A stretch of DNA of 64,000 nt from Candidatus Margulisiibacteriota bacterium (GTDB lineage: Bacteria > Margulisbacteria > WOR-1 > O2-12-FULL-45-9 > XYB2-FULL-48-7). Under the pieces are notes generated by a model, which saw nothing but the letters and a program-made list of their open reading frames with translations, had not been told where the DNA came from and searched no databases. Location of the stretch: the NCBI GenBank assembly GCA_041658645.1, contig JBAZZV010000002.1, forward strand, positions 107,907 to 171,906, given 5' to 3'. Made by a program: the position numbers and the translations under genes. Below are positions 2,821 to 59,194 of the stretch, one piece after another; within the stretch, counting starts at the first letter, position 1, and each line of letters starts with the position of its first letter.

Positions 2821-5367
2821 CTAGCGGCGCGCGGGAAAGCTCTTCCCCACAAGTTTTAGACCTTCGAACCAGGCTAAACTGGCCGCCCCGCCAAACAAGG
2901 CAACCAACAGATCGTTCACATGCAGGACCTCAAAGTGAAAAAGGTCCCGCAGAACAGGGGTATAGAGGACGATCGCCAGCGCCGCCAGGGTCCCCCCCAT
3001 TACCCACCAGAGAGCGGTATTCCTATGCCGGACGATCGTGACGATGTTCTGCGTCCAGGAGAGGTTGGTCAGGATCAGCATCAGGTTGGCAAAGACCATT
3101 GTGGCAAAGGTCAGGCTCCGCGCCTCCGCTTCGCTCTTACCAAGATAAAGGGCCAGCAGGAAGATCACCATCACGACCGCCAGTACGCTCAAACCCTGTA
3201 ATAAGCTGATCAATAATGAAGCGCGGTCGAATAACCGGTCGTTCAGCGGGCGCGGCGGCCGCCGCATGGTCCCGCCCTCCTCCGGTTCGGCCTCAAAAAC
3301 GGTCGAACAGGCCGGATCAATGACCAGTTCGAGGAAAGCGATGTGGGCCGGCAGGAGGACGATCGGCAGGTGGAAAAGTATCGGGAAAAGGGAGAGCCCG
3401 GCGATCGGCACGTGGACAGCAAAGATATAGGCGACCGCTTTTTTCAGATTGTCATAGATCCGCCGCCCCATCCTGACCGCGGCCACGATCGAGAAAAAAT
3501 CATCATTGAGCAGGACGAGATCGGCCGACTCCCTGGCGACATCGGTCCCCCGCGCCCCCATGGCCACGCCGATCTGGGCCGATTTCAGGGCCGGGGCGTC
3601 GTTGACCCCGTCACCGGTCATCGCCACCACTTCATTATTCGCCTTCAAGGCGTTGATGATATTTAATTTCTGTTCCGGCACGACCCGGGCAAAGACATTG
3701 ACGGAATTGATGCGCGCCTGCAGTTCCAGCCGGTCCATCGCCATCAATTCCGGTCCGGTGATCACTTCATCAGAGTTTTTCAGTCCGATCTGCCGGGCGA
3801 TATATTTGGCGGTACCGGGATAGTCACCCGTGATCATGATCACCCGCAGGCCGGCCTCGTAACATTCCTTGACCGCCGGCGGCACCGTCTTCCTGATCGG
3901 GTCGGTAAAACCGATCAGGCCGATGAATTTAAAAGGAAAATCATGTTGCTGGGCCGGCAATTCCGTCCGTTCGAAAGCTCCCTCGGCCACCCCCAGCAAG
4001 CGCAGTCCTTTATCTGCCAATTCGGCAATGGTCCTGGCCAACGACTCTTTCTCCGCCGCGCTTAAATGGCAGAGGTCGGCGATCGCTTCCGGCGCTCCTT
4101 TGGCGGCGATGACATAATGCTGTTTGTCCGGCGACGCCCAAACATGCGACAGCGCCAACAGCTCCTTGGAGAGCGGGTATTCCCTGACCAGTTGCCAGGT
4201 CTGGTTAAGATGTTCGGTCCCGGTCAGCCAGTTCTCCGCGCAAGCCTTGATCTCTTTTTCGATCGGGTCAAAAGGGTCGCGCTGGCTGGCCAGGAGAGAG
4301 TATTCCATCAGGTTGTGAAATTGGTCCGGCAGTCGTTGCCCGGCGGCCGCCGAAAACAACTCGTTCCCGACGTAGAGCGTCCCCAGGGTCATCGTGTTCT
4401 GGGTCAAGGTCCCCGTCTTGTCGACGCAGAGGACGGTCGCCGCCCCCAGGGTCTCGATCGCCGGCATGCGGCGGGTCAGGACTTGATGTTTGGAAAGGCG
4501 CCACGCCCCCAGGGTCAGAAAGATCAGCAGGACGACGGAAAACTCTTCCGGCAGCATCGCCATGCTCAAGGTCAGACCGGCCAGGAAGCCATTGATCCAG
4601 CTCCCCCGGGTCAAGCCATAGACCACAATGACCAGGGCGCACAGGACCAGGCCGGCCAGGGCAAAAGACTTGATGATCTGGCCGGTCTCTTTTTGGAGCA
4701 GGGTTGATTCTTCCTGGATAGATTCGAGCGCCCGGCCGATCTTGCCGATCTCGGTCCCGGCGCTGGTGGAAAAAACCTGGCCGACCCCCCGCCCCTGCAC
4801 GACCATCGTCCCGGAATAAACAAAGGGGAGGCCCTCCCCGCCCGGTTGCTGCGAGCTGCTCCGGCCATCCCACTCGCTCTTGCCGACCGCCAGCGATTCA
4901 CCGGTCAGCAACGATTCGTCGAGCATCAAGTTACTATTAAATAGCAGCCGGGCATCGGCCGGAACGCGGTCCCCTTCGCGCAGCATGATAATGTCGCCGA
5001 CCACGACCTCGCGGCCCGGGATCCGGAGCTGTTCCCCATTGCGGATGACCAGCGCTCGGGGTGACGAAAGGTTACGCAACGCCTCCAGAGCCCGTTCAGT
5101 TTTTCTCTCCTGGTAAAAAGTTATCCCGATGACGACCACCACGAAGGAGAGGAGCATCAGGGCGTCCTTTAATTCGCCGAGGACGACATAGATCAAGCCG
5201 CTGCCGAGCAGCAGCAAGAGCATCGGTTCGCGGACGACATGCCAAAGGAGTTGCAGCGGATTGCGGCGTTTCTGCGAAGGGAGCTCGTTGTAGCCGTTTT
5301 TCTTCAGCCGGGCGTCAACTTCCGCCTTGGTCAGCCCGGTCAGAGCGTTCACTTCAGTTTCGTTCAT
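2821..5367 (-). CDS. P-type cation-transporting ATPase (type II, Ca2+/Mg2+-like)
   Basis: 848 aa; DKTGTLT phosphorylation motif, TGES, MTGDGVNDAPALK hinge motif. Confidence 0.85.
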   Translation of the reverse strand: MNETEVNALTGLTKAEVDARLKKNGYNELPSQKRRNPLQLLWHVVREPMLLLLLGSGLIYVVLGELKDALMLLSFVVVVIGITFYQERKTERALEALRNLSSPRALVIRNGEQLRIPGREVVVGDIIMLREGDRVPADARLLFNSNLMLDESLLTGESLAVGKSEWDGRSSSQQPGGEGLPFVYSGTMVVQGRGVGQVFSTSAGTEIGKIGRALESIQEESTLLQKETGQIIKSFALAGLVLCALVIVVYGLTRGSWINGFLAGLTLSMAMLPEEFSVVLLIFLTLGAWRLSKHQVLTRRMPAIETLGAATVLCVDKTGTLTQNTMTLGTLYVGNELFSAAAGQRLPDQFHNLMEYSLLASQRDPFDPIEKEIKACAENWLTGTEHLNQTWQLVREYPLSKELLALSHVWASPDKQHYVIAAKGAPEAIADLCHLSAAEKESLARTIAELADKGLRLLGVAEGAFERTELPAQQHDFPFKFIGLIGFTDPIRKTVPPAVKECYEAGLRVIMITGDYPGTAKYIARQIGLKNSDEVITGPELMAMDRLELQARINSVNVFARVVPEQKLNIINALKANNEVVAMTGDGVNDAPALKSAQIGVAMGARGTDVARESADLVLLNDDFFSIVAAVRMGRRIYDNLKKAVAYIFAVHVPIAGLSLFPILFHLPIVLLPAHIAFLELVIDPACSTVFEAEPEEGGTMRRPPRPLNDRLFDRASLLISLLQGLSVLAVVMVIFLLALYLGKSEAEARSLTFATMVFANLMLILTNLSWTQNIVTIVRHRNTALWWVMGGTLAALAIVLYTPVLRDLFHFEVLHVNDLLVALFGGAASLAWFEGLKLVGKSFPARR

Positions 5368-6476
5368 TCCGCCCCCACGCCAATGAACATCTTCCCCGGC
5401 AATTGCCGGACGATCTTCTTGAGCTCGAGCATCATCAAGATACTGGCCGCCTGCGGCGAGGAGACACCGACCTCAACGGCGATCGCGTCAATATGCTTCG
5501 GCTCATGAGATATAACCGCAAAGATCTTCTCTTCTTCCGGGCTTAAATTTTCCGGCTTGGATATTGTTGTTTGGGTTTTGGTATTTGTTTTGAGGTTGGA
5601 TGTTTGAAGTTGGAGGTTTAACTCATCCAAAACGTCCTCAACCGTTTCCACAAGTTTTGCCCCTTGCTTGATCAGCCAGTGCGGCCCTCTGGACCCCTCA
5701 AGGCCGACGTTCCCGGGGACGGCAAAGACTTCCCGTCCCTGCTCCAGCGCTTCCTTGGCCGTGATCATCGCCCCGCTCTTGTAATCACCTTCGACCACGA
5801 TGACCCCGAGCGAGAGGCCGGAGATGATCCGGTTCCGTCGGGGAAAATTACTCCGATCGCCCCGCTCACCCAACGGGAATTCCGAGACCAGGGCGCCGGA
5901 CATTTCTATCTGTTCAGCCAGGGACTTATTGTCCGCCGGAAAAACGACGTCAACCCCGGTCCCGAAAACAGCAATCGTCCTCCCGCCCGCCGCCACGACC
6001 GCTTGATGAGCGGCGGCATCGATCCCCTGGGCTAAACCGGAGACGACGACGATCCCGAGCGCCGCTAGTTCACTCGCCAGTTTCCTGGCCGTGGCCAGGC
6101 CGTAACGGGAGGCTCGCCTTGTCCCGACAATGGCAATAGATCTTTCGCTTGGTTGTAACATCTCGCCGCGATAATAAATGACTGGCGGCGGATCGTAGAT
6201 ATGCTTGAGGAGTTCAGGATAATCGTCGTCAGCCAGGGTCAGCACTTTAACTTGCGCCGCCTCGACTTTAGCCAATTCCGCGTCAAGATCGACTTTGTCC
6301 CGGTTAGCCAGAAAAGAACTGATCGCTCTGGGCCGGAGCCCCTCGATCCCGCTAAAGTCGGTCGCCTGCCAAACCTGCTCGATCGAGCCAAAATGTTTCC
6401 AGAGCCGCTTGATCGTCACCGGCCCAAGTTCGGGGATATTATTGAGGCCTAACCAGTATTTGAGTTCTCTAAGCAA
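5364..6476 (-). CDS. dprA: DNA processing protein DprA (contains in-frame heptamer-repeat insertion in C-terminal linker)
   Basis: Rossmann-like GIDAAAHQAVVAAGGRTIAVFGTG core typical of DprA/Smf; C-terminal winged-helix region. Confidence 0.8.
   Translation of the reverse strand: MLRELKYWLGLNNIPELGPVTIKRLWKHFGSIEQVWQATDFSGIEGLRPRAISSFLANRDKVDLDAELAKVEAAQVKVLTLADDDYPELLKHIYDPPPVIYYRGEMLQPSERSIAIVGTRRASRYGLATARKLASELAALGIVVVSGLAQGIDAAAHQAVVAAGGRTIAVFGTGVDVVFPADNKSLAEQIEMSGALVSEFPLGERGDRSNFPRRNRIISGLSLGVIVVEGDYKSGAMITAKEALEQGREVFAVPGNVGLEGSRGPHWLIKQGAKLVETVEDVLDELNLQLQTSNLKTNTKTQTTISKPENLSPEEEKIFAVISHEPKHIDAIAVEVGVSSPQAASILMMLELKKIVRQLPGKMFIGVGAE
5558..5620. repeat. G/T-rich heptanucleotide tandem array (STRR-like), in frame inside dprA
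   Basis: About 9 units with 7 nt periodicity (gttgttt gggtttt ggtattt gttttga ggttgga tgtttga agttgga ggttt); encodes LQLQTSNLKTNTKTQTTISKP. Confidence 0.5.
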
Positions 6477-18751: not shown

Positions 18752-18769
18752 CATTCCCCCGATTGAGTG

Positions 18770-21716: not shown

Positions 21717-21746
21717 TTGACTGCCGCGCAAGGACGCAGGTATAAT
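21717..21746 (+). promoter_or_regulatory. Sigma70-like promoter upstream of the LexA-methyltransferase gene (TTGACT-N18-TATAAT)
   Basis: Near-consensus -35 and -10 hexamers about 50 nt upstream of the start. Confidence 0.45.
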
Positions 21747-21797
21747 TAGGTCAATCGAAAATGAATCGAAAGTCAAGCGAAGGTAAGTGAAGGTCAA

Positions 21798-27710: not shown

Positions 27711-29038
27711 CCGCCTCGCTCTACGTCCACATCCCCTTTTGCAAACAAAAGTGCAACTACTGTGATTTCGTTTCTTATGCCGGGAAGGAAAATTTCATTG
27801 ACGAGTATGTTGAGACGATGATCCGAGAATTCGAGTCCCGGTGTTCTGTGCTCTATGTTCCGTGTTCTACTGTCTTCTTCGGCGGCGGGACCCCGACCCT
27901 GCTCGAACCAAAGCATTTCGATAAAATATTATCCACATTCATTAGTCATTCGTCATTAGTCATTAGTCATTCAGAGATCTCCATCGAAGCTAATCCAGGA
28001 ACTGCCGGCAAAGCCAAGCTAAAAGCCCTTAGACAACTCGGTATCAACCGTCTCTCGATCGGCGTCCAGTCGTTCAACGACCGGCAGCTAAAGACCCTGG
28101 GGCGGATCCATGACTCCGCCACAGCTAAACGTTTTTATCAGGACGCGCGTGACGCCGGCTTCGACAATATTAATCTCGATCTGATCTTCGCCCTGCCCGG
28201 GCAGACCTTAGCTGAATGGAAACGCGATCTGGCCACGGCGATCGCGCTAAAACCAGAACATCTTTCAACTTATAATTTACAAATTGAAGAGGGAACACCT
28301 TTCTGGGAAAGGTTCAAAGAGCCCTCACCCGCTGCCGCAAACCGACGCACCCTCTCCCAGAGGGAGAGGGTAATGAGCCAAGCAGACTTGCAAAACACCT
28401 TCTCCCCCCCTCACCCGCTTACGCAAAGTGTCCCCCCTCTCCCAGAGGGAGAGGGTACTTCGCCTTTAATTCCCGTTTGCGCAACACCTTCTCCCTTTGG
28501 GAGAAGGTGCGCCTCCTTGGCGCATTGGATGAGGGGAGAGAAGGTGCATAGTTCTGGTAGAGCGGATGAGGGCCTCAGTCTCCCTTCCGAAGATGAAGAG
28601 CTGGCAATGTATGAATATGCCATCGAAGAACTGGCCGCTCACGGCTACAAACATTATGAGATCTCTAATTTTGCTAAACCGGGTTATGAATGTCAGCACA
28701 ATTTGGTTTACTGGCGGAACGAGAATTATCTCGGCATTGGCGCCGGCGCGCACTCCCATGTAAACGGCCAGCGCTGGTCTAATCCAAACTGTATCGAAAA
28801 ATACCTGGAAACCGCGACGTTTAGTCGCAGGTTTCCAGGTTCGACTGCCGACCAACGCGAAACGATCTTCCTCGGCCTCCGCCTCCTGGACGGTTTGTCA
28901 ATTAAGAAATTTAAAGGCTTTGAGGCTCAAGTCGCTGAACTGATAAAAGACGGCTTGTTAACCGAGGAAAAGGGGAATTATAAACTAACCCGGCAAGGTC
29001 TATATCTGGGCAATCTGGTCTTCGAGAAGTTCGTATAA
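27707..29038 (+). CDS. hemW: Radical SAM heme chaperone HemW (HemN-like), carrying an approximately 84 aa in-frame insertion
   Basis: [10 protein letters not shown] (CxxxCxxC); GGGTPT; C-terminal HemN domain; start ATG overlaps lepA stop (ATGA). Confidence 0.8.
27936..27974. repeat. Heptanucleotide tandem repeat CATT(A/C)GT, about 5.5 copies, inside the hemW coding region
   Basis: cattcattagtcattcgtcattagtcattagtcattcag; encodes [13 protein letters not shown]. Confidence 0.5.
28321..28573. mobile_element. MITE-like hairpin repeat element (TIR GCCCTCACC/GGTGAGGGC-like), copy 1, inserted in frame within hemW
   Basis: Contains two CCCTCTCCC-AGA-GGGAGAGGG perfect hairpins plus CACCTTCTCCC-TTT-GGGAGAAGGTG; ends gccctcaccc ... 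tggtagagcggatgagggc; homologous to the 49391-49521 copy. Confidence 0.55.
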
Positions 29039-30395: not shown

Positions 30396-30882
30396 AGAGT
30401 TGGAAGAAATTAAGCCGGAACTGCCGCCAGAAAAAAGCGAGCTCGAGCTGATGAAGGAGCAGGTAGCCGAGGGGAAGAATAGGATGCTCCGGGCAATGGC
30501 CGATCTTGATAACTTCAAGAAGCGCTCTTTGCTCGAGCGGGAACAGTTCGTTCAGTTCGCCAACGAAACGCTGATCAGCGACACCCTCCCCGTCCTCGAC
30601 GGCTTTAGCCGGGCGCTCGACGCGGCCGCCAAGATGAAGGCCGGGGAAGAGCTGACCAAAGGGCTTGCCCTGATCAAACGCCAGCTCGAGGACGTCTTAA
30701 CCAAACACGGGGTCAAAGTGATCGAAGCGGTCGGCAAAGTTTACGACCCAAATTTACACGAAGCAATTTTACAGAAAGAGCACCACGGCCCGGAGAATGT
30801 TATCATTGAAGAGATGCAAAAAGGTTACACCTTGCACGGGCGGGTTATCCGGCCGTCTATGGTGATCGTCAGCAAGAAATGA
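30388..30882 (+). CDS. grpE: Nucleotide exchange factor GrpE
   Basis: 164 aa; coiled-coil N-terminus; RAMADLDNFKKR...GYTLHGRVIRPSMV. Confidence 0.85.
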   Translation: MTEELEEIKPELPPEKSELELMKEQVAEGKNRMLRAMADLDNFKKRSLLEREQFVQFANETLISDTLPVLDGFSRALDAAAKMKAGEELTKGLALIKRQLEDVLTKHGVKVIEAVGKVYDPNLHEAILQKEHHGPENVIIEEMQKGYTLHGRVIRPSMVIVSKK

Positions 30883-30986
30883 CAAATGTCCAATGTCGCG
30901 TTGAATGTCAAATGTCCAATGACAAATGTCAAATGAAGGTGTCGCCTGCGGCGACATTATTCTAATCGGAAATCAACAACAAGCTT

Positions 30987-31298
30987 ATGTTAAATGAAGA
31001 ATCAAAAATAAAAATAGATTCATTGACAATAAAAGAATTGGGGGAAAACCTTGCGTTCAGCTATTACGGGGCAATGGATTCAGAGAAGTCGAGATATGCT
31101 CAACATGTTCTTGAGATGAAAAAACGAGAAGAAAACGATGACAGAATCTTGGCTTTGATAGGTTCAATAGGCAATTTAGCTAATTCAAACGAGAAAACAG
31201 CTAAATCTCAAGGTCAACTTACGTTTTGGCAGGTTGTTTTGGCGGGAGCACTCACACTAGCCACATTTGGGTTGATTTATGTTACGTGGATTAAATAA
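30987..31298 (+). CDS. Small hypothetical protein with a C-terminal TM helix (cassette cargo)
   Basis: 103 aa, AT-rich. Confidence 0.35.
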   Translation: MLNEESKIKIDSLTIKELGENLAFSYYGAMDSEKSRYAQHVLEMKKREENDDRILALIGSIGNLANSNEKTAKSQGQLTFWQVVLAGALTLATFGLIYVTWIK

Positions 31299-31654
31299 TG
31301 CAAATTCAGGATAGAGCACTGGAATTTGCGGTCAGGATAATAAAGTTTGCTGATAAGTTACCGAAATCGGCAGCGGGGGCGGTTTTGGTTAAGCAATTGA
31401 TCCGTTCCGGGACATCGATTGGGGCGAATATGGAAGAAGCGGATGGCGCTTCGTCGAAAGCCGATTTTATTAATAAAGTAACGATTGCTAGGAAAGAAGC
31501 AAGGGAAACGCATTATTGGCTACAGCTAATTAAGAAGGCGGAATTGATACATAAAGATAATATTGTTGAATTGGATAGTTTAATTAATGAGGCGGAAGAA
31601 TTGAAGCGTGTTCTTAGCGCAATCATTAACAAAGCAAGAGAAAAGAAACAATGA
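31298..31654 (+). CDS. Four-helix-bundle protein (23S rRNA IVS-encoded protein family)
   Basis: 118 aa; GTSIGANMEEADGASSKADFINKVTIARKEARETHYWLQL matches the family signature. Confidence 0.7.
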   Translation: MQIQDRALEFAVRIIKFADKLPKSAAGAVLVKQLIRSGTSIGANMEEADGASSKADFINKVTIARKEARETHYWLQLIKKAELIHKDNIVELDSLINEAEELKRVLSAIINKAREKKQ

Positions 31655-31789
31655 CAAATGACCAATTAAAAATGACAAATGAAGGTATGCCTTCGGCATA
31701 TCATTTTAATAACGTCGCGCAGCGACACATCAATTTGACATTTGTCATTGGACATTTGACATTAATAAAGGATAAGGGGGAGTAAAGAA

Positions 31790-33676
31790 ATGGCACAGGA
31801 AAAGATCATTGGGATAGATCTGGGGACAACTAACAGTTGCGTGGCGGTAATGATGGGGGGAGAAGCGACCGTCATCCCGAACTCGGAGGGAGGCCGGACC
31901 ACCCCATCGATCGTCGCTTTCCTCAAGGACGGGGCCCGGGTCGTCGGCCAAGTGGCAAAAAGACAGTCGATCACTAATCCGGAGCATACTATCTCCTCAA
32001 TCAAAAGATTTATGGGGCGGCGGTTCGACGAGGTCGGCGGCGAGCTAAAGTATGTCCCCTATCGGGTGGTTAAAGGGAGCAAAGACGAAGTTAAGATCAA
32101 GATTGACGAGAAAGATCACACCCCGCCGGAGATCTCGGCCATGATCCTGCAAAAGATGAAACAGTCGGCCGAGGATTTTCTCGGCGAGCAGGTCAAGAAA
32201 GCGGTCATCACCGTCCCGGCATATTTTAACGACAGCCAGCGCCAGGCGACCAAGGACGCCGGCACCATCGCCGGCCTCGAGGTCGTCCGGATCATTAACG
32301 AACCGACCGCCGCTTCCCTGGCTTACGGCATTGAAAAAAAGAAAGAGGAAAAGGTCGCGGTGTTCGATCTTGGCGGCGGAACTTTTGACGTCTCGGTCCT
32401 TGATATCATGGAAGGCTCGATCGAAGTCCTGGCGACCAACGGCGACACCCATCTCGGCGGCGATGATTTTGACCAGCACATCATGAAGTGGCTGCTCGAC
32501 GAGTTCAAGAAAGACCAGGGGATCGACCTGGGTAAAGACCGGCTGGCAATGCAGCGGCTCAAGGAATCGGCCGAAAAAGCCAAATGCGAGCTCTCCACCG
32601 CCGTGGAAACCGAGATCAACCTCCCCTTCCTGACCGCTGATGCTTCCGGCCCCAAGCACCTGGTCATCAAGCTGACCCGGTCCAAGCTGGAACAGCTGGT
32701 CGGCGACCTGATCGAGCGGTCGATCGCTCCGTGCAAACAAGCGCTCGCCGACGCTGGCCTCAAGGCCAACCAGATCAACGAGGTCATCCTGGTCGGCGGC
32801 ATGACCAGAATGCCTAAAGTTCAGGAAACGGTTAAAGCCTTCTTCGGCAAAGAACCGCACAAAGGGGTCAATCCGGATGAAGTGGTCGCGCTCGGCGCGG
32901 CCATCCAGGGCGGGATCATGTCCGGCGAGACTTCGAAGGAAATGGTCCTGCTTGATGTCACCCCCTTGACCCTCGGGATCGAGACCCTGGGGAGCGTCAT
33001 GACCCCATTGGTCGAGCGGAATACCACCATCCCTTATGAAAAAAGCCAGGTCTTTTCGACCGCGGCTGACGGGCAAACCTCGGTCGAAGTCCATATTCTC
33101 CAAGGGGAACGGCCGATGGCCGCAGATAACCGGACGCTCGGCCGCTTCCATCTCGACGGGATCCCGCCGGCGCCGCGCGGCATCCCCCAAGTCGAAGTAA
33201 CCTTTGATATTGACGCCAACGGGATCCTCAATGTCCGGGCCAAGGATAAAGGGACCGGCAAAGAGCAGAAGATCACCATCACCGCCTCATCCGGCCTGTC
33301 CAAGGACGAGATCGAGAAGATGAAGAAGACCGCCGAGGCGCACGAAGCCGAGGATAAGAAAAAACGGGAAGAAGTCGACACCCGCAACCAGGCCGATGCC
33401 ATGGCCTACTCCGCGGAAAAGACCTTAAAAGAGGCCGGTGACAAGGTCGACGCACCGACCAAAGAGAAGGTCGAGAAGGCGATCGCCGAAACCCGCCAGA
33501 CGCTGGCTGGAACTGACGCCGAAGCGATCAAGAAGTCCCTCGAGAACCTCCAGAAAGAGGTCTACGAGATGTCGGCCAAGATTTATAAAGAAGCCGAACC
33601 GGCCCCCGGCCCGAAAGACGAAACACGAACCACGAACGATGACGAAAAAACGATCGACGCTGAAACGGCGCCATGA
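31790..33676 (+). CDS. dnaK: Molecular chaperone DnaK
   Basis: [24 protein letters not shown], and more. Confidence 0.95.
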
Positions 33677-34734: not shown

Positions 34735-35425
34735 GGTCTTTGTTTCACCGGAACACTTTCCCGACATCATTGGCTCCGATGTCCATTACCTGCGCGACGT
34801 CCTTCGCCTGAAACCGAATGACGAGCTCGAATTGCTGGATGGCTCCGGCCTGGTCCACGCGGCCAGGATCGAAACCCTCACCCCGGACAGGGTCACCTGC
34901 CAGGTGATCAGTTCGCACCCGGCCGAGAGCGAACCGCAAACCCTGATAACTCTCGCCCAAGCTTTGCCCAAAGCCTCTAAGATGGATTTTATCGTCGAGA
35001 AATGCACCGAGTTGGGGGTTAGCCGGATCATCCCGATGCTGACCTCGCGGACGATCGCCCAGGGAGTTAAGCTGGAGCGCTGGCGCAAGCTGGCTAAAGA
35101 AGCGGCCGAACAGTCCGGCCGCGCCGTTATCCCGGAAATATCTGACTCGACGAAGTTTGCCGAGGTACTTAAGCTGAAAGATCAATTTGATCTCGCCTTG
35201 ATCCCGTGGGAGAGCGAAAAAGAAAATAGCTTAAAATCAGTTCTTACCGTCCATCGTCCATCGTCTATCGTCTTTCTGATCGGGCCCGAGGGTGGTTTTA
35301 CGAAGGAAGAAGTCGAGTCTGCCAGGCAAGCAGGTTTTATCTCGGTCAGTTTGGGTAAACGGATCATGAGGACAGAAACCGCCGGACTAGCCACGATCGC
35401 CAATATTCTCTACGAATTAGGCTGA
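34727..35425 (+). CDS. rsmE: 16S rRNA (uracil1498-N3)-methyltransferase
   Basis: 232 aa; RsmE-like PUA plus SPOUT fold motifs. Confidence 0.75.
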   Translation: MPRVFVSPEHFPDIIGSDVHYLRDVLRLKPNDELELLDGSGLVHAARIETLTPDRVTCQVISSHPAESEPQTLITLAQALPKASKMDFIVEKCTELGVSRIIPMLTSRTIAQGVKLERWRKLAKEAAEQSGRAVIPEISDSTKFAEVLKLKDQFDLALIPWESEKENSLKSVLTVHRPSSIVFLIGPEGGFTKEEVESARQAGFISVSLGKRIMRTETAGLATIANILYELG

Positions 35426-51572: not shown

Positions 51573-52678
51573 TCTGCCGCTCCTGTAATGATCTTCAAGA
51601 CCATCTCCGTCCCCCGGACAAGGTCAGAAATTTTGATCTGTTCGCGCGTCGTATGCACGTTATGGGCACCGACCCCGAGGATCACGGTCGGCAAGCCGCG
51701 CTCGTTAAAGACATTGGCATCCGACCCGCCGCCAGTCGGCTTGATGATCGGCAGAACACCGGCCGCGCGCATCCCCGCCAGGACAACGCGCATCACTTGG
51801 CTCGAAGGGCTAAGCTCGAAAGAACGGTATATCCGCTCTACTTTCAGCTTGAGCCGCGCCCGGTACTTGCGGGCCGCTTTGAAAAGTAACCGCTCCATAT
51901 GCTCGACCTGGCGCTGCAGTTTGCGCCGGCTATGACTGCGCGCTTCGCCGCGCAGTTCCACTTCATCCGGGATGATATTGGTCGCCTTACCACCCTTTAT
52001 CACGCCAATATTAGCGGTCGTTTCCGGGTCGATCCGGCCGAGCTTCATCCCGGCGATCGCCTCGCTGGCCACCTTGATGGCATTGACCCCGTCTTCCGGG
52101 TGGATCCCGGCGTGGGCCGCCCGGCCGATGATCGTCGCCGTCAAGTTATATTGCGTCGGCGCTTGATTGACGACCTTCTCGACCACCCCGCCGTCGAGTG
52201 TCAGGCCAAAGTCAGCCTGCAGCGCCTTATCCGGCAGGACCTTCGCCCCCAGCAAGCCGATCTCCTCTGCGACGGTAAAAATCACGACCAGTGGCGGATG
52301 TTTAAGCTTCCGCTCTTTTAAGACGCGGAGGATCTCGACGATCGCGACTACTCCGGCCTTATTATCCGCGCCCAGGATCGTGCCGCCATCCGGGCGGATA
52401 ACACCGTGCCGCTCGACCGGCTTGATCTTTTTTCCCGGAGAGACCGTGTCCAGATGGGCATTGATCATCACGCGGGGACTTTTCACTCCCTGACCCGGGA
52501 CAAAGGCGATCAGATTGCCGATCTCGCCCCCGGTTAAATGGCCACTCTGCCGGGTACGGATCCCGAGCGCCCTAAGTTCACGCTGGACCCATTTGGCCGC
52601 TCCGGCTTCACGCAAAGACAAACTGTCGATGCGGACCAGCTGTTTGAAACTATTAACCAGTCGGCGTTTATTGATCAT
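51554..52678 (-). CDS. M20-family metallopeptidase / deacylase (ArgE/DapE-like)
   Basis: 374 aa with M20 metal-binding His/Asp/Glu pattern. Confidence 0.6.
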   Translation of the reverse strand: MINKRRLVNSFKQLVRIDSLSLREAGAAKWVQRELRALGIRTRQSGHLTGGEIGNLIAFVPGQGVKSPRVMINAHLDTVSPGKKIKPVERHGVIRPDGGTILGADNKAGVVAIVEILRVLKERKLKHPPLVVIFTVAEEIGLLGAKVLPDKALQADFGLTLDGGVVEKVVNQAPTQYNLTATIIGRAAHAGIHPEDGVNAIKVASEAIAGMKLGRIDPETTANIGVIKGGKATNIIPDEVELRGEARSHSRRKLQRQVEHMERLLFKAARKYRARLKLKVERIYRSFELSPSSQVMRVVLAGMRAAGVLPIIKPTGGGSDANVFNERGLPTVILGVGAHNVHTTREQIKISDLVRGTEMVLKIITGAAEWKKRK

Positions 52679-53643
52679 TTAAAATGCTCGTACCCTTTGG
52701 CGTTAGCTGGAGTGATCCCGGCGCTTTTTGGGGCGATCGCTCCAACCACCGTCACCTTGGTGCCGGTCCGGCGCCGCACCAGTTCCATCAACTTGATCGC
52801 CTTGTTCTTTGGCGCGGTCAAGACCAGCTCGTACTCTTCCCCGCCGTTCAGCGCCTGGTCCGGGGTCGCTCCGGCGGCCCGCGGCACCAGCTCTGTCCAA
52901 ATCTTAGCACCTGTCCGGCTCTGCCGGCAAATCTCCCGGACCGAACGCATCAGCCCGTCGCTCGAGTCGATCATGGCGGTAGCTAAACGGGAGCGGGCAA
53001 TAGTTTGCGCTTCAGTAACGCGTAACGCGTAACACGCCGTGCCTGCCGGCAGGCAGATAACGCGATATTTTTGAGCGGCTGGGCCGCCGAACTCGCCGGT
53101 CACCAGGACCAGATCACCCGGCTTCGCCCCACCGCGGGTCATTAGTTGCCGTTGTTCAACTTCTCCCAGCAAAGTAACACTAATGATAAGTTCTTTAGGG
53201 GAAGAGATGGTATCGCCGCCGATTATATCTATCTGGTATTTTCTGGCCAGCTGTTTGAGCCCGCTGTAGAGGAGCTCGATATTTTCCGCCTGGAAGTTTT
53301 TACTCGCCCCGATCGTCACCAAAGCGTAAGTTGGCACCCCGCCCATCGCCGCAATGTCGGAAATATTGGCCGCCAGCACTTTTTCACCCAAAGCTTTATA
53401 AGAAATACCCTTGGTCTTAAAATGAACATTCTCCACAAACGTGTCAGTGGTAATTAACAATAACTTTTGTAGTTTTTGTTTTGTGATTTTGGATTTGTTT
53501 TGATGTTTGAAGTTGGATGTTTGAAGTTTGATCGCTGCGGCATCATCCCCGATCCCAATCAGCACGTTCTTCGAGGCTGGTTTGCCGATCTGCTTGGCCA
53601 GCAGTTCGATCAGACCGAATTCTCCGAGTTGCGCTAGCTTCAC
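52675..53643 (-). CDS. thiL: Thiamine-monophosphate kinase (contains in-frame heptamer-array insertion)
   Basis: GEFGLIELL...IGIGDDAA N-terminus; AIR synthase-related fold. Confidence 0.8.
   Translation of the reverse strand: MKLAQLGEFGLIELLAKQIGKPASKNVLIGIGDDAAAIKLQTSNFKHQNKSKITKQKLQKLLLITTDTFVENVHFKTKGISYKALGEKVLAANISDIAAMGGVPTYALVTIGASKNFQAENIELLYSGLKQLARKYQIDIIGGDTISSPKELIISVTLLGEVEQRQLMTRGGAKPGDLVLVTGEFGGPAAQKYRVICLPAGTACYALRVTEAQTIARSRLATAMIDSSDGLMRSVREICRQSRTGAKIWTELVPRAAGATPDQALNGGEEYELVLTAPKNKAIKLMELVRRRTGTKVTVVGAIAPKSAGITPANAKGYEHFK
53466..53530. repeat. G/T-rich heptanucleotide tandem array (STRR-like), in frame inside thiL
   Basis: gatgttt gaagttg gatgttt gaagttt units shared with the dprA array; encodes KLQTSNFKHQNKSKITKQ, inserted between conserved ThiL blocks. 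Confidence 0.5.
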
Positions 53644-53717
53644 AATTTGTAAATTATATCACGAAAATACGACTTTTTTAGCGCATTTTTTGACCTAATT
53701 ATTACGATAATACATAT

Positions 53718-54137
53718 ATGAAGAGAACATCAAAAAGGGCTGTCGACTATGCGTTCATTATAGCGTCATTTTTGTTGATTTTATGCTTTATTCCTTTGGG
53801 TTACCTGCTCACACCGCGGGGGGTCCCGCGCGGCTATAAGGTCATGCACGGAGGGACGATCCTCGCCTCGGCCTATAATTCCCTACCCGGCCAGACCGAC
53901 AGCTCCCCCTGGATCACCGCCTCCGGGACCCGCTGTCGCGAAGGGGTCATCGCTTCCAACCACTTCCCGATCGGGACCAAGATCATGATCGAAGGATATA
54001 AGGGAAAAGTCTTTGTGGTTGAGGACCGGATGAACAGGAGATACAAGAAGAAGATCGATATCTGGTTCAGAGACTACGATGACGCGATCAAGTTCGGCGT
54101 GCGCAAGGTCAAATATTACGTTTTAGCTTCAGTTTAA
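53718..54137 (+). CDS. 3D-domain (MltA-like) secreted protein
   Basis: TM/signal; 3D-domain-like acidic residues in GKVFVVEDRMN...DIWF. Confidence 0.5.
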   Translation: MKRTSKRAVDYAFIIASFLLILCFIPLGYLLTPRGVPRGYKVMHGGTILASAYNSLPGQTDSSPWITASGTRCREGVIASNHFPIGTKIMIEGYKGKVFVVEDRMNRRYKKKIDIWFRDYDDAIKFGVRKVKYYVLASV

Positions 54138-54155
54138 TACTTAATAGGTTTGAAT

Positions 54156-54521
54156 TTATTTCTCGTAGCTTTTCAATTGATTGATCAGTTTCCCGTCGCA
54201 AGATTCGACAATAAACAGGTCACCTCTATCGTCCCGCCAAAATATGCCGATCTCGTACGATTTATTCCTGGGCAATGAGTTCCGCACCGATTTCATGGCC
54301 GCTTCCAGGCTCAGGTTTGAGGCCGATAAAGCTGTTTGTAATTGCTCACAATATCCGGGATCAAACAACTCATTAACATTGGTGTGGATTGTAGCTATCC
54401 CGGACCGGCCAACCCCAATGGGCTTTGTTTTAAAGCGCAACATGACCTGGACCGCAATATCAACCCGCGGCAAATTGATTTTGTCCCTGTATAGATTATA
54501 GACCCTCGTCCCGCTTATCAT
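54156..54521 (-). CDS. Hypothetical protein
   Basis: 121 aa ORF, low GC. Confidence 0.3.
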   Translation of the reverse strand: MISGTRVYNLYRDKINLPRVDIAVQVMLRFKTKPIGVGRSGIATIHTNVNELFDPGYCEQLQTALSASNLSLEAAMKSVRNSLPRNKSYEIGIFWRDDRGDLFIVESCDGKLINQLKSYEK

Positions 54522-54613
54522 AAGTCCTCCTCATCTCTTGGCTAATATGTTTCGAACATATTTCCTGGATATTTCAGTCGAACTTACCTGATCTTTGAAA
54601 TTCTGGGCTGGTT

Positions 54614-55510
54614 TTGACGATATATTATGTAGAGAAACCTATGAGAGTCCCAAGTGTTGAATACAATCGAACCAGACAAATAATGCTTAGCGCAGGCCTC
54701 TCCAAAAGCATACCTTTCGAAGTAAGTATTTCGCGGAATGCCCCCATTCCTATTCAGCAGGCGGAAAGGATCATTGCAGCTGTGACCCAACGGCTGTCAC
54801 GCTCTCCATTTAATTCATTTATCGGCGCAAAACCAATTAACATCAAATTTGTTACCAGCGAAGAAATGGATAAGCTTGGCTATACTGATCTTTTCCGTCG
54901 CGGGGCCAACAATAATTACTCCGCCCCCGAACTTGCCAATAAAATGTCGCCGAGCGGAGCCTACGATCCCCTGAAAGATACAGTTTTTGTTAACTGCAGA
55001 TCGCTTGACCGGCCGAAAAAGTACCTGGAAGTTTTAACTCATGAATTTCTGCATGCTTACAGCACTGAAATAACTGAGATCGAGCCGGGGATCATTTCTT
55101 TAAGAAGTGGGTTAAGAACCAGCATCATTGACAAAGCAAACAAACGGGAATTAAGAAAAAGCGGAGAATATTTAAATGAGGGCCTTACGGAATATCTGCG
55201 TATCCTGGCCGGCGACGGGCCGACCTTCGGTGTCTACGTTCCGTTGGTTGAGGCGATCGGGATCGTGGCCCAACAGGTGGGGATCGATCTTTTAATGAAA
55301 GCATATTTCAAGGAAGGGCCAACACTATTAGAAAGAGCTTTTGACGGCATTCACGGTGCTAAAGCCTATTTGGAATTATCTTCACTGGCACATACGGTCG
55401 GGACCAGGAATAGCATTAGAGCCGAAGCTCGGAATGGCGAAGACCTAGCGGGTTTCGTTAGATACGGATTTGAATACTACATCATGAAAGAATGGAATAC
55501 GCAAAGATAA
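54614..55510 (+). CDS. Hypothetical protein with HExxH (HEFLH) zinc-metalloprotease-like motif
   Basis: 298 aa; VLTHEFLHAY. Confidence 0.35.
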   Translation: MTIYYVEKPMRVPSVEYNRTRQIMLSAGLSKSIPFEVSISRNAPIPIQQAERIIAAVTQRLSRSPFNSFIGAKPINIKFVTSEEMDKLGYTDLFRRGANNNYSAPELANKMSPSGAYDPLKDTVFVNCRSLDRPKKYLEVLTHEFLHAYSTEITEIEPGIISLRSGLRTSIIDKANKRELRKSGEYLNEGLTEYLRILAGDGPTFGVYVPLVEAIGIVAQQVGIDLLMKAYFKEGPTLLERAFDGIHGAKAYLELSSLAHTVGTRNSIRAEARNGEDLAGFVRYGFEYYIMKEWNTQR

Positions 55511-55690
55511 TTTACACAAAGATCGAACCCCGGCATCTTCAATCGCCAAACTTTCTGGGGAGAGGAGGCGGCGGGTCGGGATGGATGTCTAGCATCAGAT
55601 TATAAATTAGCGAGCTGGTGGAGACTCGGCTAGAATGTATTTTCGAGAAGAAATTCAAACTATTGAAAAGCAAAAACACAGGCTCAACAT

Positions 55691-57289
55691 CTACAAGGGC
55701 CTCATAACAAGCCCCCGCGCGCTATCTCGCTCCGATTCAAATACATCGATCATTTTATTAAAAAGACCATTAATATCCCGCTCTAATCTTCGTGTCTCCC
55801 AAAAACCTAATTTTGAGCATAGTGATTTTTTAGTTGTCGAATAATTATTTTTCTTACTGAATGTTTCGGTCGCCTGATCAAGATCAAGCTTTTCCGTTGG
55901 CACGGCCTTCAACCGATCGATCACTCCCAAGTAAAAAGCGAGAAAATGTTTTTCCAGCAGCCTACTTTCTGCCTGTGAATAAACAAAGGGAAGCCGTTCG
56001 CGGCGTTCCATCATCAGGGCTACCAGCAAGAGCAGTCGCGGGTCTCGCTTGAAACGAAGGTAATCAACCGGGGCCATCGATTTGGAAAATTGGCTTCCAG
56101 GGTCGTAAATAATGTGCGAGCCGATCGAATTGGTTCTAATTTCAACGTTATCGGGATATTCCGCCAAATAAGCTTGCGCCCTTTCAGCTTCTGCTTGTGC
56201 CTCCGCCAGATCCATTTTCCAATCCAGGTTCATGAGACTGAATGAAATAGTTGTTGCTGTGCCCTTGAATAATTCCAGAATATATTTCAATCTTTCTTCC
56301 TGTTTCATTGCCTGCCGCTTGTTTTTATATTTACCGATCCCTACCAGATGGTCGGAAGTAAAGCGTTCAATCCCCAGGCCGATAGTATTGCCGAACCTGG
56401 CGAATCTTTTCCAGGCCTCCGGATGCCTTTTTAACGAAGCGTCAAGTGAATCGACCCGTGACAGAAAGTAGTAACCATGAGGCATATAAGATAGGACCGA
56501 CACAATTGCGGAAGCCCGGTCTGGATTCGCCGTAAAATTGGCTGAAGCAATTCCGATCCCCTTTACTCCTTTTTCTTTCAACTCACGAAGTTCTTGCCCG
56601 ACCAGTTCTGGCGAACGATAATCTATACTTTTAGGGTCATTGCCGCAGTAGAAACAACTTCCCCAGCAGCCGCTTTCCCATTTGACCTGGGCGGTTTCAA
56701 ATCCACCGACATTATAATCCCGGGTAAAATCAAGATCGTCCAATTTCTTTACCGGCAGTGGACTTAAAATATAGGCATTCTTCGTGCACAACATTCCAAA
56801 ACCAAGCCTGTCACCAGAGTCTCGATAGGACATATCGCTAAGTGCTCTTGCAGCTAGTTCGAAATTAAAACCATTGCCTGCATAAGCTTCTATAAATGCT
56901 TCGCCTTCGTTGCTGACCAGTATTAGTTCAGGCCCGCTATCGGACAAACGTGAGAAATAAGGCCCGAATTGTTCTGCATAATAATCAGCATGATATTTAA
57001 TATCCGTCCCGCCGATAACCGTGATCGGTCTTGGCTTTAACGATTTTATTAATTGCTGAGCATCGCTGATCGCATCCTTAGAAGAACCGATAAAGGAGAG
57101 GCCAAGTATTTCCGGCCTAAATTCAGCGATTTCGCGACGTGGATCCAACCCATTTTGAAATATTTTCGTCTGATTGCCATTTTTCTTGCAGATGTTAGCC
57201 ATGGGGACAAGATGAACCGGGTCGCAAAAGCGACTGCCACCATTTGGTTCCTTATAGGGGTTCATATCAACGAAAGCGACTCGTGTCAT
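55691..57289 (-). CDS. B12-binding-domain radical SAM protein
   Basis: CWGSCFYC (CxxxCxxC); N-terminal B12-binding-like Rossmann segment; low GC. Confidence 0.6.
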   Translation of the reverse strand: MTRVAFVDMNPYKEPNGGSRFCDPVHLVPMANICKKNGNQTKIFQNGLDPRREIAEFRPEILGLSFIGSSKDAISDAQQLIKSLKPRPITVIGGTDIKYHADYYAEQFGPYFSRLSDSGPELILVSNEGEAFIEAYAGNGFNFELAARALSDMSYRDSGDRLGFGMLCTKNAYILSPLPVKKLDDLDFTRDYNVGGFETAQVKWESGCWGSCFYCGNDPKSIDYRSPELVGQELRELKEKGVKGIGIASANFTANPDRASAIVSVLSYMPHGYYFLSRVDSLDASLKRHPEAWKRFARFGNTIGLGIERFTSDHLVGIGKYKNKRQAMKQEERLKYILELFKGTATTISFSLMNLDWKMDLAEAQAEAERAQAYLAEYPDNVEIRTNSIGSHIIYDPGSQFSKSMAPVDYLRFKRDPRLLLLVALMMERRERLPFVYSQAESRLLEKHFLAFYLGVIDRLKAVPTEKLDLDQATETFSKKNNYSTTKKSLCSKLGFWETRRLERDINGLFNKMIDVFESERDSARGLVMRPL

Positions 57290-57354
57290 GAATTATTATC
57301 CGAGGATCAGAGGAAATATTTCAGTTTTTCTTCAAGGCTTCCGAGGAGACTTTC

Positions 57355-57639
57355 ATGGCCCGCCGCATCCCGTTTGACAATTCAGCTCAAAACCTGTTAA
57401 ACTTTTCATTAAAGGACGGTGATTCCATTATGACGCCCGCAAAAGCAATGACTGAAGTGTTTGTTGCCGCCTTCAAGGCATTACCTCATTCCGAACAGGA
57501 GTCCTTTTTATCTAAATTAATTAAAGATAAACATTTTAGGGATGATCTCATTGATCTGGCAATTGCTGAAACCAGGAAGCATGAAAAAACCAGGCCTTTT
57601 CACAAGGTCATCGCAGAAATACACGCTGCAAGAAACTAG
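57355..57639 (+). CDS. Putative antitoxin of a type II toxin-antitoxin pair
   Basis: 94 aa; stop/start overlap (ATGA) with the downstream RelE-like gene. Confidence 0.45.
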   Translation: MARRIPFDNSAQNLLNFSLKDGDSIMTPAKAMTEVFVAAFKALPHSEQESFLSKLIKDKHFRDDLIDLAIAETRKHEKTRPFHKVIAEIHAARN

Positions 57640-57896
57640 TGTTTAAGTACCACCTCGAAATAACATCCGGCGCTGAAAAAGAACTCAAAAAATACCCCTC
57701 CAAACTTCAGGACCGGATCATTAAGAAAATATTAAACCTGGAAGAAAACCCTCGGCCTTATGGGTTTAAGAAATTGTTCGGCTCAAATAATTTTCGCGTA
57801 AGAATGGGCGATTACAGGATCATTTATGCTATTGATGACGCAAGAAGAACAGCAAAGATCATTGACCTAGGGCATCGGAAAGATATTTATCGCTGA
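57639..57896 (+). CDS. RelE/ParE-family toxin
   Basis: 85 aa; KKILNLEENPRPYGFKKL...FRVRMGDYRIIYAIDD..AKIIDLGHRKDIY typical RelE/StbE. Confidence 0.7.
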   Translation: MFKYHLEITSGAEKELKKYPSKLQDRIIKKILNLEENPRPYGFKKLFGSNNFRVRMGDYRIIYAIDDARRTAKIIDLGHRKDIYR

Positions 57897-59194
57897 AACC
57901 AGGCTTTACTTCCCCCTAAGGCTTCCGAGGAAATCTTCATCGCGCAGAACTCACCGCACATGGAGCACGTGTCCTGCCCTGTGTTCCGTGCTCCGTGTTC
58001 CATTTTCCGTGCTCTTTTCTCATGGATCTTCTTGGCTTTCACCGGATCGATCGCTAACTGGATCTGTTTTCCCCAATTCAAACTTTTCCGCGCCTTGGAC
58101 ATCGCCCTATCCCACTCGATCGCTCCGGGTATCCCATTGGCTATATCGGCGCAGTGAGCGGCGATCCGGGAAGCGATCACCCCTTCTTTGACATCGGCCG
58201 GTTCCGGTAAACCGAGATGTTCGGTCGGAGTAACGTAACAAAGGAAATGAGCGCCGGAGACCGCCGCCAACGTCCCGCCAATCGCGGCGGTAATATGGTC
58301 ATAACCGGGGGCGACATCGGTCGGCAGAGGACCGAGAACGTAGAAGGGCGCGCCAGAGCAATATTTCTTTTGCATTTTCATCTGGGCGACGATCTGGTTA
58401 TAAGGAACATGTCCCGGCCCTTCGATGATCACCTGCACTCCGGCCCGCCAGGCCAGTTTAGTCAGTTGGCCGAGGATCTTGAGCTCTTTGATCTGGGCGG
58501 CATCACCGGCGTCAACGACCGAACCCGGACGCATCCCGTCACCCAGAGAAAGAGTGACATCGTACTGCGCGGCGATCTCGAGCAGGCGGTCATAGTGTTC
58601 ATAAAACGGGTTTTCCTGGTCATTGTCAATTATCCACTTCATCAGCAACGCCCCGCCCCGGGAAACAACTTCCATCAAACGAGGATGTTTCTTCAACTCG
58701 GCAACCGAAGCCCGGGTCACCCCACAATGGACCGTCATAAAATCGACCCCTTCTTTGGCCTGGGCCTCCACGACCGAGAACATCCCATCGACGGTCATTT
58801 TCTTTTCGACCACCGCCTGGTAGATCGGCACCGTGCCGACCGGGACCGGACAAGCCGCCATGATCGCCTTTCTCGTCGCGTTGATATTCCCGCCGGTCGA
58901 CAGGTCCATGATCGCGTCGGTCTTGGCCGCCAGGGCCGCTTTGAGCTTTTTGAGCTCTGTCTTTAAATGAGGATAATCGGCGGAGGTCCCGATATTGGCG
59001 TTAACCTTGGTCCGCAAACCTTGGCCGATCCCGGTCGGGCGGCAATTTTTGTGCCGTGGATTATAGGGAATAGAGAGTGTCCCTTGGGCTAAACCTTTGA
59101 GGATCTCCGCGGGGGAACAGCTTTCATCTTTAGCGACCGCTTTCATCTGCGGCGTGACCACCCCCTTCAGCGCGGCCTGGCGTTGGGTAGCCAT
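57887..59194 (-). CDS. thiC: Phosphomethylpyrimidine synthase
   Basis: 435 aa ThiC; C-terminal CSMCGEFCA cluster motif. Confidence 0.9.
   Translation of the reverse strand: MATQRQAALKGVVTPQMKAVAKDESCSPAEILKGLAQGTLSIPYNPRHKNCRPTGIGQGLRTKVNANIGTSADYPHLKTELKKLKAALAAKTDAIMDLSTGGNINATRKAIMAACPVPVGTVPIYQAVVEKKMTVDGMFSVVEAQAKEGVDFMTVHCGVTRASVAELKKHPRLMEVVSRGGALLMKWIIDNDQENPFYEHYDRLLEIAAQYDVTLSLGDGMRPGSVVDAGDAAQIKELKILGQLTKLAWRAGVQVIIEGPGHVPYNQIVAQMKMQKKYCSGAPFYVLGPLPTDVAPGYDHITAAIGGTLAAVSGAHFLCYVTPTEHLGLPEPADVKEGVIASRIAAHCADIANGIPGAIEWDRAMSKARKSLNWGKQIQLAIDPVKAKKIHEKRARKMEHGARNTGQDTCSMCGEFCAMKISSEALGGSKAWFQR

Follow-up and report, generated by a model that had tools for sequence, protein, structure and literature searches.

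The subject of this report is a pair of short in-frame inserts of tandem heptanucleotides, one in thiL (thiamine-monophosphate kinase) and one in dprA, on a 64,000-nucleotide (nt) stretch of contig JBAZZV010000002.1 from a Candidatus Margulisiibacteriota metagenome-assembled genome (MAG). The whole stretch is called the window, and positions refer to it unless another locus is named. The module represented by the two inserts is a dispersed DNA family, with copies in intergenic DNA as well as in many unrelated genes. In anatomy and outer boundary it matches the terminal arms of small cassettes that carry a gene of the PF05635/TIGR02436 four-helix-bundle family, which is the protein family of 23S rRNA intervening sequences (also S23p). 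On balance, each insert is probably a solo copy of such an arm, of the AAACWTC type, that is translated and tolerated.

The thiL gene (52675..53643, minus strand; Pfam AIRS, E=1e-23, and AIRS_C) is an intact open reading frame (ORF) of 322 aa, and its product is 100% identical to a Ca. Margulisiibacteriota MAG protein and present in NCBI, ENA and Logan assemblies. The ORF hosts two inserts (sites 1 and 2) and is unbroken. The site 1 element, accurately placed at 53466-53530 in a preliminary description of the window, is an in-frame segment of 63 nt (53467-53529), A/C-rich and non-palindromic, made of four heptamers and an A/C-rich tail. The array (53502..53529, minus strand; seen in the sequence, with Tandem Repeats Finder (TRF) and with the cassette-arm profile described below) reads AAACTTC (53529-53523), AAACATC (53522-53516), CAACTTC (53515-53509) and AAACATC (53508-53502) on the coding strand. 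The units show an alternating T/A pattern, and TRF gave a period of 7 with 4.9 copies and a period of 14 with 2.2 copies and 94% matches. The tail, AAAACAAATCCAAAATCACAAAACAAAAACTACAA (53467..53501, minus strand, read from the sequence), resembles a second, degenerate array with AAATCCA units; at the corresponding position of the thiL loci L015 and L017, AAATCCA is repeated 4.4 and 3.6 times (TRF). Two distant relatives, L014 and L015, share the AACAAATCCAAAAT core of the tail in their ThiL inserts, and in ThiL relatives of 52-58% identity site 1 consists of (CAAATTC)x4 or (CAAATTA)x4 followed by the AACAAATCCAAAAT block. No Rfam family was found at the element; the scan of the window at gathering thresholds returned seven tRNAs only.

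At the protein level, the conserved IGDDAA and TTDTFVENVHF blocks of ThiL are spaced by 28 residues, versus 11 in the minimal state of relatives. Alignment with the solved Aquifex ThiL (1VQV), which also has 11 residues there, leaves a clean gap of 17 residues, within the 16-18 extra residues first counted. An alignment of ThiL orthologues agreed with this: 23 of 120 homologues show the 11-residue state and lack the insert. The relatives that do carry an insert are heptamer-periodic as well, and no close relative with an identical insertion devoid of periodicity was found among them. In the AlphaFold model (mean predicted local distance difference test (pLDDT) of 86.9) the insert, residues 40-59, is coil with a pLDDT of about 50-59. 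It sits between the strands of residues 36-39 and 60-71, which bear the GDD and TTD motifs, and is predicted from this model to be a disordered loop.

The dprA gene (5364..6476, minus strand) is an intact ORF of 370 aa with the Pfam domains DNA_processg_A (residues 71-277) and DprA_WH (residues 307-362), and its element (5559..5619, minus strand; seen in the sequence and as the best match of the cassette-arm profile) lies in the linker that joins the DNA_processg_A and winged-helix domains. It comprises four units, AAACCTC (5619-5613), CAACTTC (5612-5606), AAACATC (5605-5599) and CAACCTC (5598-5592), and a tail, AAAACAAATACCAAAACCCAAACAACAATATCC, that begins with AAAACAAATACCAAAACCC. The heptamer match with thiL noticed in the preliminary description is thus borne out: both inserts have four units and a tail, and 22 of 23 nt are in common (blastn, E about 1e-5 within the window). 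The score of the full-length alignment (50) was higher than that of all 1,000 composition-preserving shuffles (maximum 45), and the inserts are the sole two strongly G+T-rich, AT-rich tracts of the window. Their tails are translated in different frames (NKSKI vs. KTNTKT), and the similarity is therefore at the DNA and not at the peptide level. An argument made from the shared peptide is for this reason weak and secondary to that from DNA identity across frames. Since 7 and 3 are coprime, a heptamer array encodes the same seven-residue repeat in all three frames (e.g., QIPNSKF or KLQTSNF).

The 23-mer common to thiL and dprA, AACTTCAAACATCCAACYTCAAA, had 25 exact matches in metagenome contigs, in more than ten unrelated genes. 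The hosts include ThyX, LpxC, MutL, CarA, TruB, a GltD-like oxidoreductase, MnmA, MetRS, a PIF1-like helicase and ThiL, together with lipoprotein signal peptides, four-helix genes and FabD, the last assigned by eye only; the named hosts belong to Margulisiibacteriota MAGs. Copies inside genes use all three frames and always lie in interdomain linkers, loops or N-termini, and some copies are intergenic. The left boundary is sharp at these loci, and the right side varies from a bare array to an array with a tail of the AAAACAAAT(G/C)(G/C)CAAAT type. These findings argue strongly against a separate local origin of the module at each site. A search of the viral contigs of IMG/VR gave no match to the 23-mer, and a viral origin was rejected on this basis.

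At 5 of the 25 loci, four of them distinct, a PF05635 (23S_rRNA_IVP) gene stands beside the array. In the four distinct cassettes (L023, L037, L039 and L040) the gene is bracketed by inverted repeats of array plus tail; the arms of L023 are 42 nt long and 81% complementary, with the sequence AACTTCAAACTTCAAACATCCAACTTCAAAATAAATCCCAAC, and those of the other three are similar. The AAACWTC cassettes are small selfish cassettes of about 0.5-0.9 kb in related Margulisbacteria. Every AAACWTC arm has AAAA(C/T)AA after its four units, and both inserts, that of thiL and that of dprA, can be aligned with these arms in register. A profile hidden Markov model (HMM) was built solely from the six arms of three cassettes (L023, L037 and L039). 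When run against the window it gave two significant matches only, dprA (5576-5618, E=2e-6) and thiL (53486-53528, E=2.5e-5), in both cases over model positions 2-44, and the next best match had an E-value of 2. An inverted copy of the thiL or dprA array was not found in the window, and no PF05635 gene lies near either; the inserts are therefore described as solo arms and not as cassettes. In L040 (571-760 and 1174-1233; a 1.3-kb contig) the AAACYTC family has expanded in the manner of a microsatellite to form the arms of the four-helix gene (27 units according to TRF, with an array of at least 170 nt), and arms can therefore grow well past four units.

The window has one cassette, which is complete and of the AATGACA family, between grpE and dnaK (30878..31763, plus strand; recognized by its arms, Pfam, TIGR02436 and fold). 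It consists, in this order, of an array and a hairpin, an ORF of 103 aa (30987-31298; hydrophobic C-terminus, no Pfam or NCBIfam match), the PF05635/TIGR02436 four-helix gene (31298-31654; Pfam E=2e-24), an internal direct array (31650-31682), hairpins and an inverted array. Its inverted arms (30904-30945 and 31722-31763) are 42 nt long and 93% complementary, its arrays end in AATGAAGG, and its termini are predicted to pair as a long stem (z=-7.4). A target-site duplication was not seen at its junctions. The cassette is of low G+C content (GC), the stop codon of grpE (TGA) lies in the first heptamer, and the arrays are followed by the GC hairpins GTCGCC-TGC-GGCGAC and ATGCC-TTCG-GCAT. Another cassette with arms of the AATGACA family lies between carA and carB in L049, a locus that was not selected through the 23-mer; as all ten P0305 places are this one carA/carB locus, it represents a single extra unbiased cassette. 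Besides the four-helix gene, its arms (1683-2903) enclose a gene with a ThsB/TIR domain (Thoeris-like defence effector family), and arms can therefore enclose cargo. The AATGACA family has in-frame solos of its own, in the carA linker (L049 1072-1104), at ThiL site 1 of the homologues P0104 and P0117 and, judged from the peptides (MTNDKCQMTNEG), in many DprA linkers.

The same arrangement was found in other phyla. The four-helix protein of the window matched 31 plasmids (tblastn, PLSDB), 16 of them from Nostoc, and 14 plasmid loci from Cyanobacteriota, Spirochaetota, Bacteroidota and Chloroflexota were analyzed. At 12 of the 14, the gene is flanked on both sides by a period-7 array at a distance of at most 150 bp, compared with 0.6% of random windows from the same loci. 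In eight, the left-hand unit recurs on the right as its reverse complement, and the units vary between cassettes. TRF gave no clean period-7 arrays on both sides in L068 and L070; in L070, units resembling CAGTGAT make up a 30-nt inverted repeat, and the repeats of L068 are of a different kind. Where cassettes share a unit, their proteins are 65-85% identical, versus a mean of 46%. Between the L062 (Nostoc) and L063 (Aulosira) cassettes, whose contexts are unrelated, nucleotide similarity stops exactly at the outer array edges. The plasmid genes are small insertions between operon genes (cas2/cas1, helicase/methylase, RND adaptor/permease). Array, four-helix gene and inverted array form a discrete unit that is common to unrelated contexts and occurs in at least five phyla. 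In the CRISPR adaptation operons of L059 and L060 (Nostoc and Anabaena plasmids) and L068 (Pseudanabaena), the cassette separates cas2 from cas1 or is placed immediately upstream of cas1; in L064, L065 and L071 it separates a helicase-related gene from its successor (a DNA methylase in L071), and these operons may be of the restriction type.

With a strict detector, the window contains 6 period-7 arrays versus 0.03 expected, and none at periods 8-16. Period-7 arrays number 17.6 per 100 kb in Margulisbacteria DNA (26 in 147 kb) and 1.6 per 100 kb in ThiL loci from other phyla, a roughly tenfold enrichment that is not shared by the other short-period repeats (5-12 nt), whose frequency is the same in both. 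Copy numbers in Margulisbacteria cluster at 4.3-4.9 units (mode 4.4-4.9). A telomere-like or G-quadruplex basis for this preference for four units was rejected, as the units are not G-rich and are not permutations of known telomere repeats. Of 65 arrays, 42 fall in ORFs of 150 aa or more, unlike the intergenic bias reported for Nostoc and Xanthomonas, and the genes that host arrays in the window are thiL (two sites), dprA, thiC, rsmE, a HemN-like gene and dnaK (C-terminal tail). On the coding strand, 33 of the 42 in-gene arrays are stop-free; those with stops are probably degenerate consensus units or lie in spurious ORFs. The stop-codon and orientation analysis was discarded as a test, since being stop-free is a necessary condition for lying inside an ORF.

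In relatives, arrays change by whole units, and occupancy of the ThiL site changes very often. The preliminary description had read the thiL segment as repeat expansion or insertion and not as inherited sequence. This holds in that the segment was not part of ancestral ThiL: members of the same dispersed DNA family occur in unrelated genes, site 1 is empty in the closest ThiL relative (P0002, 78% identical), and at this site P0104 has exactly three units (21 nt, frame kept) more than P0117. To set inheritance aside was too strong, given that the dprA array is inherited in 83%-identical relatives (checked at the DNA level), that the same DprA peptide pattern is seen in a 65%-identical relative, and that the 55%-identical ThiL P0017 has a clearly homologous two-part insert. 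Nor is the segment a simple local expansion, being built like the terminal arm of a gene cassette, with four units, a tail and an outer boundary that is fixed. On a tree of 118 tips, the state of ThiL site 1 requires at least 46 Fitch changes (mean of 55.6 when shuffled), which is almost no phylogenetic signal, and simple old inheritance was rejected as a sufficient explanation on this quick neighbour-joining (NJ) tree. The empty site of L012 reads AAA ACC CGA ACG AAG and contains no AAACWTC seed. In the 91%-identical pair P0085 and P0052, the empty site TTCCCGG of the former faces TTCCCAG TTCCTAG, a 24-nt non-heptamer segment and TTCCCAG TTCCCTA in the latter. In about 120 DprA homologues the linker is occupied by peptides that look like translations of arrays from several unit families, and in the dprA of L043 the unit series is displaced by one unit relative to the tail.

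Whatever moves or copies the cassettes may leave a single arm at a permissive site; alternatively, the module could be copied by template switching or gene conversion. It would be tolerated because, on the A/C-rich strand, it is stop-free and frame-independent, and it would persist as a seven-residue repeat in a harmless hydrophilic loop. Complete cassettes can pair into a stem of the RNase III type; a solo arm, with no inverted partner nearby, would be unable to. The insert would then evolve by whole-unit slippage and be repeatedly lost and regained. We infer that the ThiL insert is neutral or selfish DNA and not an adaptation of ThiL.

Several points weigh against the proposal that the thiL and dprA inserts are solo cassette arms. 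No deposition mechanism was observed and no recognizable transposase was found, and at the thiL junctions no target-site duplication was seen relative to the empty site in L012. The window has no cassette of the AAACWTC family, its single cassette having AATGACA arms, and the four AAACWTC cassettes were retrieved via the 23-mer itself, which biases their frequency among the copies. Similarity between the thiL and dprA tails alone was not significant (p about 0.06) and was dropped as independent evidence. The direction of descent, which on the present reading would run from cassettes to solos, may also be the reverse. The NJ occupancy tree is based on a single gene and is indicative, not robust; the presence of an insert at the same ThiL site in many lineages could reflect old inheritance with turnover instead of repeated insertion. 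Moreover, the heptamer of P0052 matches the local sequence (TTCCCAG vs. TTCCCGG), which fits growth in place better than import.

The main rival to the solo-arm reading regards the array modules as primary: free-standing modules would have a copying process of their own, as proposed for short tandemly repeated repetitive (STRR)-type repeats, four-helix genes would have been captured by arrays or have landed beside them, cassettes would be merely what lies between modules, and the insert would never have been part of a cassette. It accommodates well that about 20 of the 25 23-mer loci are solos, that 43 of the 74 period-7 rows given by TRF for the plasmid loci are distant from the four-helix gene, that arrays also occur between tRNA genes, and that four-unit elements were reported without mention of a cassette in Geobacter (PMC2700814) and in Xanthomonas and Nostoc (PMC4692102). 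Capture, however, would not yield the inverted orientation and matching tails seen in 8-12 of 14 cases, and leaves unexplained the end of similarity at the outer array edges and the co-variation of unit and protein clade; we regard this explanation as rather unlikely. Less probable still is a purely local slipped-strand expansion in the thiL loop, with the likeness to dprA and other loci arising by convergence on A/C-rich, stop-free units. Arrays do grow or shift in place, as seen from the three-unit difference between P0117 and P0104, the P0052 unit that matches the empty site of its 91%-identical relative, the register shift of L043 and the L040 array of at least 170 nt. What local expansion does not account for is an identical 23-mer with T/A alternation, a four-unit length and a similar tail at 25 loci in several MAGs, or the significant matches to the cassette-arm HMM, and the empty L012 site offers no AAACWTC sequence from which to start.

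It is very improbable that the insert is a functional segment under selection, that is, an adaptive ThiL loop or DprA linker rich in K, Q, N, S and T. DprA needs a linker, and about 120 Margulisbacteria DprAs fill it with such sequence; ThiL site 2 is also constant at 30 residues. A selected peptide, however, would not require periodicity of the nucleotides, the same DNA is read in three frames across hosts, the segment is predicted to be disordered, and it is missing from the closest ThiL relative and from 23 of 120 homologues, with almost no phylogenetic signal in occupancy. Hardly any weight can be given to a phase-variation locus that switches thiL or dprA by frameshift, or to mis-assembly. 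The gain or loss of one 7-nt unit would shift the frame, and repeats can confuse assemblers. Unlike a phase-variable simple sequence repeat, the arrays have four imperfect units and reside in housekeeping genes, no frameshifted allele was seen, and relatives differ by three units or by compensated shifts with the frame kept and the ORFs intact. An artefact is further contradicted by an identical protein in the independent NCBI, ENA and Logan assemblies and by orthologues from many samples with comparable inserts.

For a single gene the result is modest, and annotators should not treat such ThiL and DprA segments as lineage-specific functional motifs. Loops that are disordered and encoded by repeats offer a natural system in which to study protein tolerance and possible recruitment.

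Site 2 of thiL (53009..53064, minus strand; identified from the sequence and relatives) carries the array CGCGTTA / 21-nt element / CGTGTTA CGCGTTA CGCGTTA CTGAAGC. It follows the motif PAAxKY, and a heptamer array was found there in every relative with DNA examined, each with a different unit, at a near-constant length of 30 residues. ThiL residues 191-208, at this site, are modeled by AlphaFold as coil (pLDDT 66-76). The 21-nt element (53037..53057, minus strand) is a palindromic mini-element, TCTGCCTGCCGGCAGGCACGG, not present in the orthologous array of L012. It is placed exactly at a heptamer-unit boundary, equals three units or seven codons and encodes CLPAGTA. Its core CCTGCCGGCAGG occurs 3 times in the window versus 0.28 expected, and the core TGCCTGCCGGCAGGCA is also found at window positions 14262-14273 and at L014 10860-10871, in frame and translated as CLPAGR or ACRQAG. 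The mini-element peptide interrupts arrays in the ThiL/DprA homologues P0010, P0035, P0051, P0068, P0100, P0101 and P0130. The dprA of L044 (P0122) has an in-frame gain of 30 nt at the left edge of the array (about 1990-2020), made of two small hairpins, TCCGCC-GGAG-GCGGA and TCCGCC-TTTG-GCGGA, that encode SAGGGSAFGG and are not present in the dprA of the window or of L043. The unit CGTCCAT is shared by ThiL site 2 of L015 and the rsmE array of the window, a different gene in a different genome.

Other in-frame arrays of the window were located in the HemN-like radical SAM gene (TCATTAG, 27939-27971), the DnaK C-terminal tail (CGAAACA, 33612-33636), rsmE (CGTCCAT, 35248-35272) and thiC (GGAACAC, 57981-58011). 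Arrays of ATAACCG, GTCTTGA, CTAACTA and AAATCCT fill the spacers beside and between three tRNA genes (20736-20811, 21378-21463 and 21525-21611) in the region 20736-21611. Low-GC islands are present at 16000-24000 and 53650-57880 (GC of 0.34-0.44 vs. about 0.57 elsewhere); the latter separates thiL from thiC, which are far closer to each other in L012 and L014-L016. In L017 (1041-1336) a gap of 295 nt follows thiL, and the call for the downstream M20 peptidase gene is shorter by about 80 residues than in the other loci; the cause may be a disruption or a miscalled start near a repeat. The HIP1 octamer GCGATCGC occurs 10 times in the window versus 2.4 expected. As this enrichment is modest and the MAG is of Margulisiibacteriota, a cyanobacterial origin was rejected.

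Among the closest known systems are the STRRs, which reportedly were described by Mazel et al. in 1990 as heptanucleotide repeat sequences of cyanobacteria. The arrays studied here resemble these in being 7-nt tandem direct repeats beyond chance, of about four units, dispersed in many copies and many families per genome and patchy across phyla; they are unlike them in that the Margulisbacteria arrays are often part of housekeeping genes, where they occupy orthologous loops and linkers and are translated in frame. In Xanthomonas and Nostoc, GGGNATC arrays are under-represented in ORFs, and their four units were explained by G-quadruplexes (Rehm et al., PMC4692102), an explanation that cannot apply to the A/C-rich units of Margulisbacteria. 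Elements of four heptamers lie between genes and are also 'found within genes' in Geobacter metallireducens (PMC2700814), and TAACTGA repeats are known from Beggiatoaceae, cyanobacteria and Bacteroidetes (PMC4679880). These papers give no mechanism and do not mention the PF05635 family (PMC4692102, PMC2700814, PMC4679880). A literature search by identifiers of the family, incomplete in its coverage, returned nothing on repeats. The kinds of element, heptamer arrays and intervening sequences, are thus already known, and it is the link to PF05635 cassettes that is not made in the cited heptamer-repeat papers.

With miniature inverted-repeat transposable elements (MITEs) and the solo terminal repeats of transposons, the thiL and dprA inserts have in common that a non-autonomous remnant at many sites matches the terminal repeat of a larger element. 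They differ in being a single arm without target-site duplication, the parent having no transposase and the terminal repeat being itself a tandem array; the thiL element does not have the two terminal inverted repeats and the target-site duplication that define a MITE. Rickettsia palindromic elements are short selfish repeats of 100-150 bp, palindromic, that are inserted in frame in conserved genes and translated at permissive surface sites. The thiL element is likewise in frame, translated and placed where the surface of a conserved protein is permissive, which is a likeness of behaviour and not of membership: it has 63 nt, is non-palindromic and is from a different phylum, and to our knowledge the Rickettsia elements have no heptamer periodicity and do not serve as arms of gene cassettes. 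The small dispersed repeats (SDR) of Nostoc, said to have been described by Elhai et al. in 2008 (cited in PMC5861425), are hairpin-forming elements of 21-27 nt that are reportedly often embedded in tandem heptamer arrays. The 21-nt palindrome of thiL site 2, the 24-nt segment of P0052 and the two 15-nt hairpins of L044 look analogous to these; the Margulisbacteria mini-elements differ in that they are part of genes and keep the frame, and their phylum is a sister of Cyanobacteria.

The 23S rRNA intervening sequences (IVS) of Coxiella, Leptospira and Brucella are, like the cassettes, small elements with an inverted-repeat stem and a four-helix-bundle ORF at a tolerated site of the host molecule. 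The Coxiella IVS, with its S23p ORF, starts with three heptamers and a degenerate fourth, in a number that varies by strain; an RNase III site is at the first repeat, and the origin of the IVS was called unknown (PMC4990558). Unlike an IVS, the window cassette lies between protein-coding genes and not in rRNA, and the thiL and dprA inserts are single arms without a gene, in coding sequence, translated and not excised. The four-helix protein is a reported homopentamer in Xanthomonas. A more general reading, which we hold to be possible but advance only tentatively, is that the heptamer arrays of about 4-5 units found in many bacteria (cyanobacterial STRRs and those of Xanthomonas, Geobacter, Beggiatoaceae and Margulisbacteria) are largely terminal repeats or solo remnants of one class of PF05635/TIGR02436 cassette that is read by the pentamer through its array, that the 23S rRNA IVS are the special case that landed in rRNA, and that in Margulisbacteria the arms colonized proteins. 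A pentameric protein would recognize its cognate array with one heptamer for each subunit, and this would account for the favoured array size as well as for the way in which unit and protein clade co-vary. If true, the arms in loops and linkers of essential Margulisbacteria proteins would make a measurable share of the proteome translated selfish DNA. The arrays that flank 12 of 14 plasmid genes, the co-variation of unit and protein, the similarity that stops at the array edges and the solo arms in essential genes together suggest that heptamer arrays and 23S rRNA IVS are two views of one class of element.

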